DNA of 45,038 bases. It comes from a virus. Lineage: Duplodnaviria > Heunggongvirae > Uroviricota > Caudoviricetes. The notes below the pieces were generated by a model, which worked only from the letters and a program-made list of their open reading frames with translations, searched no databases and was not told the origin of the DNA. Position 1 is the first letter of the stretch, and each line of letters opens with the position of its first letter. The translations under genes and the position numbers were made by a program. Location: IMG/VR virus record IMGVR_UViG_651053023_000003, positions 1 to 45,038 of that record, one strand, 5' to 3'. Of this stretch, positions 3,740-20,949 are shown piece by piece.

Positions 3740-4357
3740 TTAGCCACGCTTAACCTCCTGCGGCGGTTCCGGTAGCGGCATCCAGTGAGTTGCTTGCTCA
3801 ATACCATTACCCGGCTTAATCGTTGCATCTCCGCGCCGAAAGGTGCTTCCGGTATAGCGTGCGGAGCATATTAGCGGTTCAACCAGAGAGCTATCGAAAT
3901 TCACCGAAATAAGCACGTTCTGGCCCTTTTCAGGCATTCGCTCACTACAGCTTATCCAACCATCCTTAATGCAATTACCTTGACTCTGAAGCATAGCGGC
4001 ACGACAGGCGTTCCAGCCTCTCACCTCTGCAATAGCGGCAACAGCATCAACCGCGTACATTTTAAGAGGGTTAGGCATTGGTTTTTCTTCCGGTACTACT
4101 GGAACGGGGGGAGCGGCGTAGACCTCAATAATTCCATTATCAATAGGCCATTCTCCATCCTTGAGGTAGTCACTTGCGCCGTCAACTTGCTGTTCTGCAA
4201 TGTGGAATGCACCTATTGGTTTTGCTTCCAGCGATGCCAGTGCAATTCGTGCCAGTTCTTCCGCTTCTTCTGCTGGCAGTACAACGTTGCTACCAGGTCC
4301 GTATGTTTCGCGCCACTGCTTGATTGTCAGTAGTCGCTCTTTGGTAATAGTGGTCAT
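3740..4357 (-). CDS. Hypothetical early-region phage protein (possibly DUF551-type)
   Basis: 205-aa ORF in the int-proximal ea/b region, co-oriented with neighbours; domain assignment tentative. Confidence 0.45.
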   Translation of the reverse strand: MTTITKERLLTIKQWRETYGPGSNVVLPAEEAEELARIALASLEAKPIGAFHIAEQQVDGASDYLKDGEWPIDNGIIEVYAAPPVPVVPEEKPMPNPLKMYAVDAVAAIAEVRGWNACRAAMLQSQGNCIKDGWISCSERMPEKGQNVLISVNFDSSLVEPLICSARYTGSTFRRGDATIKPGNGIEQATHWMPLPEPPQEVKRG

Positions 4358-16712: not shown

Positions 16713-16925
16713 ATGGACACCGTTAACGGAATGTGTTCAGACGCACCGCGTGCCAAAAAATGTAAGTGCGGAAAATCACCGACAATATTCGACATGGAGA
16801 ACGGGTGCCAAATCTACTGCGCTAACCACGCTGCTGTGGCGGCCGCGAATTATCGCAGTGCGGTAACGGAGTGGAATAACCTGAAATCTGTTAGAGAGGG
16901 AAGTCATGAAAAAACTAACCTTTGA
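16713..16925 (+). CDS. Lar-family restriction-alleviation protein (zinc ribbon)
   Basis: 70 aa; CKCG...(12 aa)...CQIYCANH zinc-ribbon spacing and C-terminal ...AVTEWNN resemble the Lar family from memory. Confidence 0.5.
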   Translation: MDTVNGMCSDAPRAKKCKCGKSPTIFDMENGCQIYCANHAAVAAANYRSAVTEWNNLKSVREGSHEKTNL

Positions 16926-17322
16926 AATTCGATCCCCAGCACATCAGCAAAACGCTATTCACGCGGTACAGAAAATTCTTCCAGACCCAACCAAACCAAT
17001 CGTAGTAACCATTCAGGAACGCAACCGCAGCATTCGGCAAAATGCACGCCTTCACGCGATGCTATCTGAAATAAGTAAGAAGGCTACATATCATGGGAAA
17101 GCAAGAAATATTGAGTTTTGGAAGGGGTTATTCGTTTCTGGTTGGCAGATTGCAACCAACCAGCACCCTGAGATTATATCAGGGTTAGAAGGTGAGCTAA
17201 TAAACATCAGAGAGAGTACGGCGACTCTATCTGTAAAAAAAATATCCGAAATAATGGACTACATAGAAGCATATTGTGCCATGAACTCAATTCATCTTAG
17301 CGAATGGAGGAATTATGATTGA
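16906..17322 (+). CDS. ninB: NinB (Orf-family recombination mediator), C-terminus altered by the downstream insertion
   Basis: 138 aa; N-terminus MKKLTFEIRSPAHQQNAIHAVQKILPDPTKPIVVTIQERNRS matches lambda NinB from memory. Confidence 0.8.
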   Translation: MKKLTFEIRSPAHQQNAIHAVQKILPDPTKPIVVTIQERNRSIRQNARLHAMLSEISKKATYHGKARNIEFWKGLFVSGWQIATNQHPEIISGLEGELINIRESTATLSVKKISEIMDYIEAYCAMNSIHLSEWRNYD

Positions 17323-17917
17323 GGTTTGGGTAGATATCGAAGGAATTCCATTTTATCAGGTTAGCAATAAAGGAAATTTCAGGTCTATTACGAGGGAAAT
17401 TACAGTAACATCAACCAGACAGAGGCCATATAAGAAAATAATTAATGGCACTAGCGTAAAACCATTCAAGTGCAAGTCGACAGGATATCTTCAAATAAAG
17501 GTATACGGTAAGAAATACAGCGCCCACAGGATAGTTGCGAAAGCATTCTGTACAGGGTTCTGTGATGGCTTGGTAGTTAATCACAAAAATGGGCAAAGAG
17601 ATGACAATAGGGCTGAAAACCTTGAGTGGGTATCACATTCTGAAAACTCAAAGCACGGATATAAACAAAATGGAAGAATACCTATATCGCTAGGTAAATT
17701 TAGTGGTGATCATCCTGCCAGTAAAGCTGTTATTTCTACTGACATGAAAACTGGGGAGGAGGTTTATTATGAAGCAGCTATGGATGCTGTCAGAGAAGGA
17801 TTTGATAGTTCGTCAATTAGTCGTTGCTGTAATGGCGAAAGCTCATATCACAAAGGAAGATTCTGGCGATTTGCAAATGAAACAATGAAAGCGCGATGGG
17901 GAGATCGGGCCGCATGA
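17315..17917 (+). CDS. HNH homing endonuclease (NUMOD4 + HNH_3-type)
   Basis: 200 aa; NUMOD4-like WVDIEGIPFYQVSNKGNFRS and HNH motif HRIVAKAF...NHKNGQRDDNRAENLEW; own GAGGAA Shine-Dalgarno; C-terminal tail KARWGDRAA. Confidence 0.8.
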   Translation: MIEVWVDIEGIPFYQVSNKGNFRSITREITVTSTRQRPYKKIINGTSVKPFKCKSTGYLQIKVYGKKYSAHRIVAKAFCTGFCDGLVVNHKNGQRDDNRAENLEWVSHSENSKHGYKQNGRIPISLGKFSGDHPASKAVISTDMKTGEEVYYEAAMDAVREGFDSSSISRCCNGESSYHKGRFWRFANETMKARWGDRAA

Positions 17918-18614: not shown

Positions 18615-18982
18615 CAATGGATTATTCACAGTTAAGTGATTTTGAAATTAACGTGGCGGTATTCGAAGCCATTCATAACGGATCACCGGATTACAAAGAA
18701 GGTGAGAATGGCGATATGGTGTTTGTCTCATTTGAGGGAGACATTGTAAACGGAGACGCAGTTGAAGTAGAAGTTGAGCGCGGATCCTTTAACCCATGCG
18801 CAAACCCAGCAGACTCATGGCCGATTATTGAAAAATACAGGATTAGCATTATCAATCTCGATGAAGACGAGTGGGGTGCACGCGGTGTGGCCTACTGTAA
18901 ATCTAAGCGAGCTATACATGAAAATCCCCTCCGCGCCGCCATGATTGTCTTTCTCATGATGCAGGACGCCAATAATGCTTAG
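18611..18982 (+). CDS. Hypothetical nin-region protein
   Basis: 123-aa ORF from the ATG overlapping the ninE stop (ATGA), GAGGAA Shine-Dalgarno; acidic protein. Confidence 0.5.
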
Positions 18983-19151
18983 CCCATCCCAATCCATTCA
19001 ATACCAGAAAGAAAGCGTCGAGCGGGCTTTAACGTGCGCTAACTGCGGTCAGAAGCTGCATGTGCTGGAAGTTCACGTGTGCTCCGATTGCTGCGCAGAA
19101 CTGATGAGCGATCCGAATAGCTCAATGTACGAGGAAGAAGACGATGGCTAA
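18975..19151 (+). CDS. ninF: NinF (below the ORF-track length cutoff)
   Basis: 58-aa ORF read directly from sequence: [58 protein letters not shown], matching lambda NinF from memory. Confidence 0.8.
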   Translation: MLSPSQSIQYQKESVERALTCANCGQKLHVLEVHVCSDCCAELMSDPNSSMYEEEDDG

Positions 19152-19710
19152 ACCAGCGCGAAGACGATGTAACCGTAAAAGAGAAGATTTAACTGTTAAA
19201 AGGATATTTGAGTTACTAAGTTTCGATAAATCTACCGGTGTATTTAGATGGAAAGTTCCCACTCAGGGAAGGATAGCATTAAATAGTGTTGCTGGAACTT
19301 TTGATTCCAACGGTTATTCAATGATCATGATTGATGGGCGTAGATATAAAACTCACGTCTTAGTTTTTTACATAACTCATAATCGTTGGCCTGCTGGTCA
19401 AATTGACCACGTTAATGGAATTAGGACCGACAATAGGCCAGAAAATTTAAGAGAATGCCTGCCAATAGAAAATTCAAGAAATATAAGGATCCGAAAGAAT
19501 AGCAAATCAGGTTGCAGAGGAGTTACTTGGCACAAACGACAGAAAAAATGGAATGTTAGGCTAGGTTTCCATGGCAAGAGTAAACACTTCGGATGCTTTG
19601 ATGATCTGGAGTTAGCGGTACTAGTTGCTGAAGAAGCCCGAGATAAGTATTACGGTGATTTTTCCGGCAACGAAAGGAGCACTTATGCGAATCTATCGAA
19701 GGAAATGTAA
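19144..19710 (+). CDS. HNH homing endonuclease (HNH_3 + AP2-type DNA-binding domain) carrying a NinG-like N-terminus
   Basis: 188 aa; starts MAKPARRRC (canonical NinG start from memory) then HNH motif [15 protein letters not shown] and AP2-like [29 protein letters not shown]. Confidence 0.75.
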
Positions 19711-20287
19711 ATGTTGCAATGAATGGTTTATACCAAAATATCAAAATCAATATTGGTGTAATGAGATTTGTGGAACAAAGATAGCACTCGAACGACGAAG
19801 CAAAGAACGCGAAAAAGCGGAAAAAGCAGCAGAGAAGAAACTACGACGAGAGGAGCAGAAACAGAAAGATAAACTGAAGATTCGAAAACTCGCCTTAAAG
19901 CCCCGCAGTTACTGGATTAAACAAGCCCAACAAGCCGTAAACGCCTTCATCAGAGAAAGAGACCGCGACTTACCATGTATCTCGTGCGGAACGCTCACGT
20001 CTGCTCAGTGGGATGCCGGACATTACCGGACAACTGCTGCGGCACCTCAACTCCGATTTGATGAACGCAATATTCACAAGCAATGCGTGGTGTGCAACCA
20101 GCACAAAAGCGGAAATCTCGTTCCGTATCGCGTCGAACTGATTAATCGCATCGGGCAGGAAGCAGTAGACGAAATCGAATCAAACCATAACCGCCATCGC
20201 TGGACTGTCGAAGAGTGCAGGGCCATCAAGGCGGAGTATCAACAGAAACTTAAAAAACTGCGAAACAGCAGAAGTGAGGCTGCATGA
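19685..20287 (+). CDS. ninG: NinG (Rap) recombination-promoting nuclease
   Basis: 200-aa ORF from the ATG at 19685 (AAAGGAG Shine-Dalgarno); ...[24 protein letters not shown]...RSEAA matches lambda NinG from memory. Confidence 0.85.
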
Positions 20288-20949
20288 ATATCTACGAAAG
20301 AATTGATGGCAGCAAATACCGAAATATTTGGGTAGTTGGCGATCTGCACGGATGCTACACGAACCTGATGAAAAAACTGGAGACGATAGGATTCGACACC
20401 AAAAAAGACCTGCTTATCTCGGTGGGCGATTTGGTTGATCGCGGTACAGAGAACGTCGAATGTCTGGAATTAATCACATTCCCCTGGTTCAGAGCTGTAC
20501 GTGGAAACCATGAGCAAATGATGATTGATGGCTTATCAGAGCGTGGAAACGTCAATCACTGGCTGCTTAATGGCGGTGGCTGGTTCTTTAATCTCGATTA
20601 CGACAAAGAAATTCTGGCTAAAGCTCTTGCCCATAAAGCAGAAGAACTTCCGTTAATCATCGAACTGGTGAGCAAAGATAAAAAATATGTTATCTGCCAC
20701 GCCGATTATCCCTTTGACGAATACGAGTTTGGAAAGCCAGTTGATCATCAGCAGGTAATCTGGAACCGCAAACGAATCAGCAACTCACAAGACGGGATCG
20801 TGAAAGAAATTAAAGGCGCGGACACGTTCATCTTTGGTCATACGCCAGCAGTGAAACCACTCAAATTTGCCAACCAGATGTATATCGATACCGGCGCAGT
20901 GTTCTGCGGAAACCTCACATTGATTCAGGTACAGGGAGAAGGCGCATGA
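20284..20949 (+). CDS. ninI: Ser/Thr protein phosphatase (lambda NinI type)
   Basis: 221 aa with metallophosphatase motifs GDLHG, GDLVDRG, GNHE. Confidence 0.85.

Follow-up and report, generated by a model that had tools for sequence, protein, structure and literature searches.

Most work on free-standing homing endonucleases has been done in virulent phages, among them T4, ICP1, and SPO1. Here, we describe a locus in a 45,038-nucleotide (nt) stretch of viral DNA (Duplodnaviria; Heunggongvirae; Uroviricota; Caudoviricetes; IMG/VR record IMGVR_UViG_651053023_000003, positions 1 to 45,038), the whole of which is called the window below, that would offer a clean and experimentally accessible example from temperate lambdoid phages, for which lambda itself could serve as an unoccupied target. 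In the nin region of the window, a gene for an endonuclease with an HNH and an AP2 domain occupies the 5′ end of ninG (rap) and is followed by a rebuilt ninG with a foreign 5′ end. We consider it likely, with a probability of roughly 0.6, that this arrangement is a free-standing HNH-AP2 homing endonuclease cassette that targets canonical ninG and in which the replacement segment gives immunity.

Homing endonucleases that combine HNH and AP2 domains are an established family (Magnani et al., 2004, as cited in PMC10448857), and phage nuclease genes sit at the boundaries of genetic exchange (Barth et al., 2023, PMC10448857). The family members of phage ICP1, the ‘IPA-HNH’ genes, resemble the ninG-site nuclease in that they are free-standing and phage-borne, carry an N-terminal HNH and a C-terminal AP2 domain, and lie at an exchange boundary, but their HNH domain is too divergent for the Pfam HNH_3 model (PMC10448857). 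The ninG-site nuclease, in contrast, scores well above the cutoff of that model, and the closest HNH-AP2 relatives found for it are at most 48% identical. We know of no member of the HNH-AP2 family that targets ninG.

I-HmuI of the Bacillus phage SPO1 is a strand-specific nicking enzyme. It has the same HNH_3 core with a D-H...N...N motif as the ninG-site nuclease (PDB 1U3E), but its gene lies in a group I intron and its DNA-binding modules are of the NUMOD and helix-turn-helix types, whereas the ninG-site nuclease is free-standing and carries an AP2 domain. By analogy, the latter may nick its target like I-HmuI instead of cutting both strands.

In the ‘intronless homing’ of SegF, SegG, and MobE in phage T4, the carrier allele differs at the target and the flanks are co-converted; the Seg enzymes are of the GIY-YIG type, while MobE is an HNH enzyme. 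For mobE, this is described in PMC2790892. The ninG locus is similar in that a free-standing nuclease gene lies beside its presumed target, and the linked divergent 5′ segment of ninG fits this scheme. However, the seg and mob genes of T4 are intergenic and have their own starts, whereas the ninG-site nuclease lies within the coding sequence of its presumed target, uses the start of that gene, and brings with it a whole replacement N-terminus and a new ribosome-binding site.

Nuclease genes inside coding sequences have also been encountered: in the Aeromonas phage Aeh1, mobE lies within nrdA. Another example is the HNH insertion in a methylase gene of phage ShiLan (PMC11855218). In both cases, as at ninG, the function of the host gene is kept, but there the host protein is in two pieces or is read through the insert, while at ninG nine codons remain upstream and the gene is made whole by a foreign 5′ end. 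The same capture of a start codon as at ninG is seen in gene 31 of the lambdoid, P22-like Salmonella phage epsilon34, a gene that joins the eaE N-terminus in frame with an HNH homing endonuclease (PMC2629481). However, that gene belongs to the early-left operon and involves a different resident gene, and no rebuilt copy of the interrupted gene is described (PMC2629481). A description of the ninG cassette itself was not found in the literature, and the genome paper of SH2026Stx1, a phage that carries it, does not mention it. Start-codon capture together with a delivered replacement 5′ end is a neat variation and not a new principle; it shows how an element can enter a coding sequence without loss of the gene.

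A foreign cassette in the 5′ end of ninG

The locus comprises the following features (window coordinates):

18975 to 19151, + strand: ninF (Pfam NinF, E = 8.3e-14); its stop overlaps the ATG at 19144, the original translation start of ninG
19144 to 19172, + strand: what is left of canonical ninG at its 5′ end (29 nt, MAKPARRRC plus 2 nt), from which the HNH open reading frame (ORF) now starts
19144 to 19710, + strand: HNH-AP2 endonuclease ORF, 188 amino acids (aa), nine ninG codons fused to a foreign nuclease gene
19173 to 19768, + strand: inserted foreign cassette, 596 nt, replacing 64 nt (nt 30-93) of canonical ninG according to empty-site alignments
19345 to 19464, + strand: HNH_3 catalytic core (Pfam), residues 68-107, extending to Asn110
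19510 to 19656, + strand: AP2-type DNA-binding domain, residues 123-171, three strands and a helix
19674 to 19679, + strand: AAGGAG ribosome-binding site of the restarted ninG, inside the HNH ORF, with a 5-nt spacer to the ATG at 19685
19685 to 19768, + strand: foreign replacement 5′ end of ninG, 28 codons, the proposed cleavage-immune variant of the target
19685 to 20287, + strand: reconstituted ninG, 200 aa (Pfam NinG, E = 5e-84)

The nuclease ORF overlaps the ninF stop by 8 nt (ACGATGGCTAA), exactly as the annotated ninG does in phage mEp234, the NinG of which also starts with MAKPARRRC; the first-pass annotation of this DNA had named both traits as those of a normal ninG, and on both points it was right. 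Alignment of the ninF-ninG junctions shows that the mEp234 gene shares 29 nt with the window, is identical up to 19172, and then diverges, and canonical junctions in E. coli genomes also match only up to that position. The left breakpoint therefore lies after 19172 and the right one before 19769, where the lambda-type ninG sequence resumes (TGTGGAAC.AAGATAGC). The proposal that the HNH gene occupies the native 5′ end of ninG is thus borne out, and the alignments go beyond it in showing that nt 30-93 of ninG have been replaced by a foreign substitute. Across the left junction, an imperfect 20-nt tandem duplication (80% match) is present at 19162-19202 (AAGACGATGTAACCGTAAAAG / AGAAGATTTAACTGTTAAAAG; positions 3990-4030 of the O157:H7 PA20 locus, L004), which could have been left by microhomology or slippage when the junction was first formed, or could be due to chance.

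Before codon 60, the ninG-derived ATG at 19144 is the only in-frame ATG, GTG, or TTG of the nuclease ORF. As judged from its sequence, the ORF is without a start codon of its own, and its translation is predicted to begin at the former ninG ATG, which is coupled to the ninF stop. Compared with its family, the nuclease has about 12-14 extra residues at the N-terminus and about 10 at the C-terminus: residues 2-5 of single-domain homologs (160-180 aa) align to query residues 15-18, and these homologs end near query residue 175. In an AlphaFold model of the protein, residues 1-12 and 182-188 are disordered, with a predicted local distance difference test (pLDDT) score below 50.

The divergence of the ORF into HNH and AP2 domains, which had been read from the translation alone, is confirmed by profile searches. 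Pfam HNH_3 matches the 188-aa protein with 42.7 bits against a cutoff of 24.8 (E = 4.2e-11), and PHROGs assigns the protein to phrog_99, ‘HNH endonuclease’ (E = 1.4e-71). The motif D88-H89...N101...N110 is intact, occupies columns that are invariant in a 17-member family alignment, and aligns in the family profile with the DH...N...N of I-HmuI; the catalytic, metal-binding, or structural roles of D88, H89, N101, and N110 we take to be those of the I-HmuI structure. The same family profile matches I-HmuI (1u3e) with E = 4.8e-8. For the C-terminal domain, Pfam AP2 stays below its cutoff with the single sequence (22.2 bits versus 33.3, E = 1.8e-4), but the family profile matches the solved AP2 structures WRI1 (E = 2.2e-11), TEM1, ERF096, and AtERF1, with E-values from 2e-11 to 3e-3, and at the level of sequence profiles this settles the assignment to AP2. 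The AlphaFold model (mean pLDDT 83.8) places strands 127-152 and a helix 155-173 after the HNH core, and the modeled AP2 domain superposes on AtERF1 (1gcc) with a template modeling (TM) score of 0.68 and a root mean square deviation of 1.3 Å. The top Foldseek match is 1u3e (probability 0.97, E = 5e-3), with a global TM score of 0.34 for this elongated multi-domain protein, and AP2 domains are also among the leading structural matches.

An endonuclease encoded in a group I intron or an intein was ruled out: no Rfam family matched positions 18800-20400 at E ≤ 1, hence there is no intron, a stop codon closes the ORF, and ninG begins anew at a different ATG and in a different frame. PADLOC defense models gave no match to the nuclease at E ≤ 1e-3, an NCBIfam scan gave no matches, and a promoter and terminator scan found nothing above shuffled expectation.

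The restart of ninG at 19685 with a new ribosome-binding site and a variant N-terminus had also been noticed at first reading and holds, the variant part amounting to 28 divergent codons. Relative to the HNH ORF, the restarted gene is shifted to the +1 frame, with 26 nt shared between the two, and its product covers positions 5-192 of the 193 positions of the Pfam NinG model with 281 bits. The substitute 5′ end has about 56% nucleotide identity to the canonical one, and the cysteine pattern of the variant NinG (C8-x2-C11...C25-x3-C29) parallels the canonical pattern C9-x4-C14...C28-x3-C32; by sequence comparison, it is a true but distant homologue of the canonical 5′ end. Consequently, ninG codons 1-9 are represented twice, once in the N-terminus of the nuclease (MAKPARRRC) and once in the new start of NinG (MRIYRRKC). 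In a phage collection, tblastn located the variant NinG N-terminus only in two HNH-bearing phages, with all other matches at 66% or below, and a 40-aa query gave no information beyond seven partial E. coli NinG fragments. The cassette explains a recurrent oddity in annotations, namely a 200-aa NinG with an unusual N-terminus that follows an ‘HNH endonuclease’ starting like NinG. Downstream, ninH is absent from the window, and the ninG stop overlaps the start of ninI (ATGA) at 20284-20287, as it also does in E. coli JNQH497 (L076) and in O157:H7 PA20, while mEp234, P393-F10, and E2863 have ninH between ninG and ninI.

The site is polymorphic for presence and absence of the insert at one defined position, with 563 filled and 1681 canonical places in E. 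coli genomes. When an empty site is reconstructed from the window flanks and the canonical 64 nt, it is found contiguously at 97.8-98.2% identity, for example in E. coli JNQH497, which has the order ninB-dam-ninE-ninX-ninF-ninG-ninI, the same ninX-ninF-ninG-ninI as the window, and neither of the two HNH genes that the window holds. The guanine-cytosine (GC) content of the cassette is about 37% versus 49-51% in the flanks (nuclease body 38.7%, substitute ninG 5′ end 29.5%, rest of ninG 48.9%, ninF 50.8%).

These observations bear on the possibility that the arrangement is ancestral, i.e., that NinG first carried or followed an HNH module and that canonical ninG genes are deletion derivatives, or that the enzyme is a packaging HNH protein of the HK97 gp74 type. 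That the ORF has the first nine codons of NinG would agree with such an origin, but the insert is compositionally foreign, the equivalent of these codons is present twice, there are 1681 places with canonical ninG but 563 with the cassette, only 2 phage genomes have the cassette versus 499 phage records that match the region, and the HNH homologs are free-standing in unrelated contexts. We regard this explanation as highly improbable, and its specific form in which the HNH ORF is an ancestral fusion partner of NinG, raised beforehand as a possible refutation, is excluded by the 1681 canonical 5′ ends without HNH, the empty site at about 98% identity, and the occurrence of relatives elsewhere. 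A terminase-associated HNH of the HK97 gp74 type was rejected, as the gene lies between ninF and ninG, about 6 kb from the terminase genes; the large late-gene ORFs of the window start near 25.4 kb.

Distribution and single origin

The nuclease body is present at 563 places in 537 of 5426 complete E. coli genomes, with at least 99% identity in 529 of the 537, and the 65 nt of the substitute ninG 5′ end that lie past the nuclease stop have an identical distribution over these 537 genomes and 563 places; a single genome has up to three copies. Since the ORF is kept at this level across hundreds of E. coli genomes, it is not a chance reading frame. Bodies of lambda-type ninG were counted at 2437 places, so that the share occupied by the cassette is about 23% in this genome sample, which is heavily biased toward enterohaemorrhagic E. 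coli (EHEC). In the phage collection, both parts of the cassette occur only in the Shiga toxin 1 (Stx1) phages AU6Stx1 and SH2026Stx1. The exact 188-aa protein was found on at least 1000 contigs, mostly from E. coli and some from Salmonella, under the RefSeq label ‘HNH endonuclease’.

Loci were sampled from E. coli together with 59 loci from IMG/VR, giving 65 in all, and every one of them has the same left and the same right junction. The linkage between the nuclease body and the variant ninG 5′ end is intact in 61 of the 65; the four exceptions are two insertion sequence (IS) insertions, one contig end, and one frameshifted copy that still holds the segment. About 95% of the nuclease ORFs are intact. 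As for the two IS-bearing loci (L005 4650-5878 and L011 3050-4263), strain Z1323CEC0008 has an IS2 within the rebuilt ninG, just past the variant 5′ end, and strain PK8241 an IS3-family element between the HNH 3′ end and the ninG restart, which has changed the C-terminus of the HNH protein. A systematic link between the cassette and stx was rejected, with stx1A found within 3 kb downstream in only 3 of the 65 loci.

The first-pass annotation had described an insertion at a terminus of ninG. Comparison with empty sites upholds the insertion as such, but it is not an event that took place in this phage: the cassette is a widespread, pre-formed unit. It is well supported as an insertion and, as far as sequence comparison reaches, plausibly mobile. 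An upstream ninF, as in the window, accompanies the cassette in only 29 genomes, whereas most copies begin at the equivalent of window position 19128, with just 16 nt of the ninF 3′ end preceded by unrelated DNA. This AU6Stx1-type upstream DNA was never found without the nuclease in a search for empty sites in that background, and the 16-nt remnant of ninF is retained, which indicates that the AU6Stx1/O157-type arrangement is derived and that of the window ancestral. Independent homing into this second background was accordingly rejected, there being no empty site in it, and a single origin of the cassette is indicated by the sequences. Both arrangements can occur side by side, as in E. coli E2863 (NZ_AP018802.1), which has a ninF-type and a ninF-less cassette in two prophages at about 2.526 Mb (L008) and about 2.797 Mb. 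The ninF-less, AU6Stx1-type cassette is preceded, at a distance of about 200 nt, by a perfect tandem repeat of the hexamer TATTTC, which reaches 12.8 copies in PA20 (L004 3701-3777) and differs in copy number between loci (also seen in L001 and L010).

Homing, passive spread, and other readings

If the cassette homes, it would do so during lytic growth or upon prophage induction, when another lambdoid genome with canonical ninG is present in the same cell. The enzyme would bind canonical ninG through its AP2 domain and would nick or cut within roughly the first 100 nt of the gene, after which repair off the cassette-bearing genome would copy the cassette in. Carriers would be immune, their recognition sequence being replaced by the divergent 84 nt; that the stretch presumed to be the target has given way to a version of about 56% identity, always linked to the nuclease, lends indirect support to cleavage of the empty allele and resistance of the filled one. 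Given that the left junction falls in ninG codon 10 and that the right one is homologous, the founding repair can be pictured as follows: a break in a ninF-ninG phage was probably repaired from an adenine- and thymine-rich donor that had the HNH gene directly upstream of its own ninG, and the right end (from TGTGGAAC) would have been joined through homology and the left end, at codon 10, illegitimately.

Diversity along the locus was compared in the 21 loci of the ninF type. Nucleotide diversity (pi) is 0.0035 in the cassette, 0.097 in ninF (14 haplotypes), and 0.023 and 0.069 in the first and second half of the remaining ninG, which makes the cassette 6-28 times less diverse than its flanks. 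Polymorphism at intermediate frequency starts 9 nt to the right of the insert (19777) and about 85 nt to its left (19082-19088). The cassette is surrounded by at least 10 different sets of nin, Q, and stx modules, and this presence in many nin-region backbones indicates horizontal spread. The variable sites of the ORF are 11 synonymous and 12 nonsynonymous, which corresponds to a ratio of nonsynonymous to synonymous polymorphism (pN/pS) of about 0.29, and the common variants are mostly synonymous; by this measure, the nuclease ORF is under purifying selection. The contrast in diversity, 0.0035 against 0.023-0.097, appears compatible with homing without being decisive.

The same data have to be weighed against passive spread, by which a single illegitimate insertion of a ‘moron’ in a ninF-ninG phage was followed by ordinary recombination and clonal expansion of EHEC, with an enzyme that does not target ninG or is inactive. 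A single origin, identical junctions in all 65 loci, and the derivation of the AU6 type from the ninF type all agree with this, as do the concentration of most copies in the O157, O26, O111, and O145 lineages, the occurrence of filled and empty sites within one chromosome, the lack of association of the nuclease relatives with ninG, and the degenerate state of some copies. However, a cassette that is so much less diverse than sequence less than 100 nt away, with 14 ninF haplotypes among 21 loci, would require many exchanges with crossovers hugging the insert. The pN/pS value, the large proportion of intact ORFs, the intact catalytic motif, and the occupied share of lambda-type ninG copies also speak against it, and we consider passive spread rather unlikely.

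Several further points weigh against homing into ninG. Free homologous exchange among lambdoid phages, together with clonal expansion, could mimic low diversity in the cassette amid diverse flanks. Many genomes, such as those of O157:H7, hold filled and empty ninG side by side, and carrying genomes have a median of one cassette versus a median of two lambda-type ninG copies; conversion among resident prophages is therefore rare at best, which would be expected if the nin region is silent in lysogens. Several cassette copies lie in defective prophages. Singleton changes (P83T and N101S) affect invariant residues, and one copy is frameshifted. Moreover, we infer the putative specificity for ninG from the position of the gene alone, no donor lineage was found, no relative between 48% and 99% identity appeared in the searches described below, and no ninG was present in those neighborhoods of distant nuclease homologs that were examined.

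The HNH-AP2 family is very large, with 41,346 representatives at E ≤ 1e-10. A word-indexed protein search returned the 99% cluster and then nothing above 47% identity, and in an exhaustive phmmer search nothing exceeded 48% among the top 150 matches. This phmmer search, which ran over 50%-identity representatives, gave none with at least 50% identity to the query and no match of about 430 bits among those listed; the exact protein is present in the underlying collection, with a 90% cluster of 464 members, the representative of which seems to be missing from the searched library or was not recovered. A scan of the GTDB representative genomes gave only a 39% match, in a metagenome-assembled genome of the Planctomycetota. 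The distant HNH relatives are free-standing in unrelated phage contexts. The closest metagenomic relative with a readable context (44% identity, L006 1033-1927) is a free-standing HNH gene in a T7-like contig and directly follows a gene for a T7-type endonuclease I, a Holliday-junction resolvase; its neighbor is thus a junction-resolving enzyme, as NinG/Rap is here, a resemblance that is probably coincidental.

The nuclease could also be domesticated and beneficial to its carrier, either by excluding competing lambdoid phages through cleavage of their ninG region or by aiding recombination together with NinB and NinG. It belongs to the recombination (nin) operon, and purifying selection acts on it; moreover, as the seg and mob genes of T-even phages show, homing endonucleases can bring about marker exclusion and competition when phages co-infect a cell (PMC2790892). 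On the other hand, no PADLOC defense model matches it, and its architecture is that of typical homing endonucleases (PMC10448857). We consider a beneficial role improbable, and since exclusion and homing would both follow from the same cleavage, it is hard to separate from homing into ninG.

Taken further, homing into ninG would make the cassette an actively homing, ‘self-healing’ element that breaks the ninG 5′ end, installs itself via the translation start of its victim, and delivers a replacement N-terminus that restores NinG and confers immunity, and the breaks it makes could recurrently drive module exchange in the nin-Q-stx region of EHEC prophages. This extended version is possible but tentative. 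The cassette is common in EHEC prophages and sometimes near stx1, lying about 2 kb upstream of Q-stx1 in Stx1 phages, and, if active, could influence recombination in the control region of Shiga toxin.

The second HNH gene and mosaicism of the nin region

The window contains only two ORFs of the HNH_3 type, and the other one lies upstream of the cassette:

17315 to 17917, + strand: HNH gene of the NUMOD4-HNH_3, I-HmuI-like type, in the intergenic space between ninB and dam, separate from the cassette

Its product belongs to phrog_59 and matches the PADLOC ‘homing endonuclease’ model. Similarity between the two HNH proteins of the window is limited to 60 residues of the HNH core (37% identity), and they belong to different PHROG families, which sustains the earlier view that two independent HNH genes are present in one nin region. 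The neighboring ninB is a divergent allele of low GC content (16906-17322, 41% GC), and the stop of the HNH gene overlaps the likely true start of dam, an ATG at 17914; homology to genomes that lack the HNH gene resumes at about 17909, just before this ATG. The ninB-HNH-dam arrangement occurs in 62 phage records, mostly of Stx phages. It is plausible that the nin region is a hotspot for such elements, as had been suggested from the two genes of the window. The 3′ boundary of ninF also carries other cargo in other genomes: in many E. coli prophages, homology ends at the ninF stop (equivalent to about 19146) and is followed, in place of ninG, by a KilAC-domain antirepressor, a Rha regulator, or a hypothetical gene, which indicates that this boundary is a general mosaic joint.

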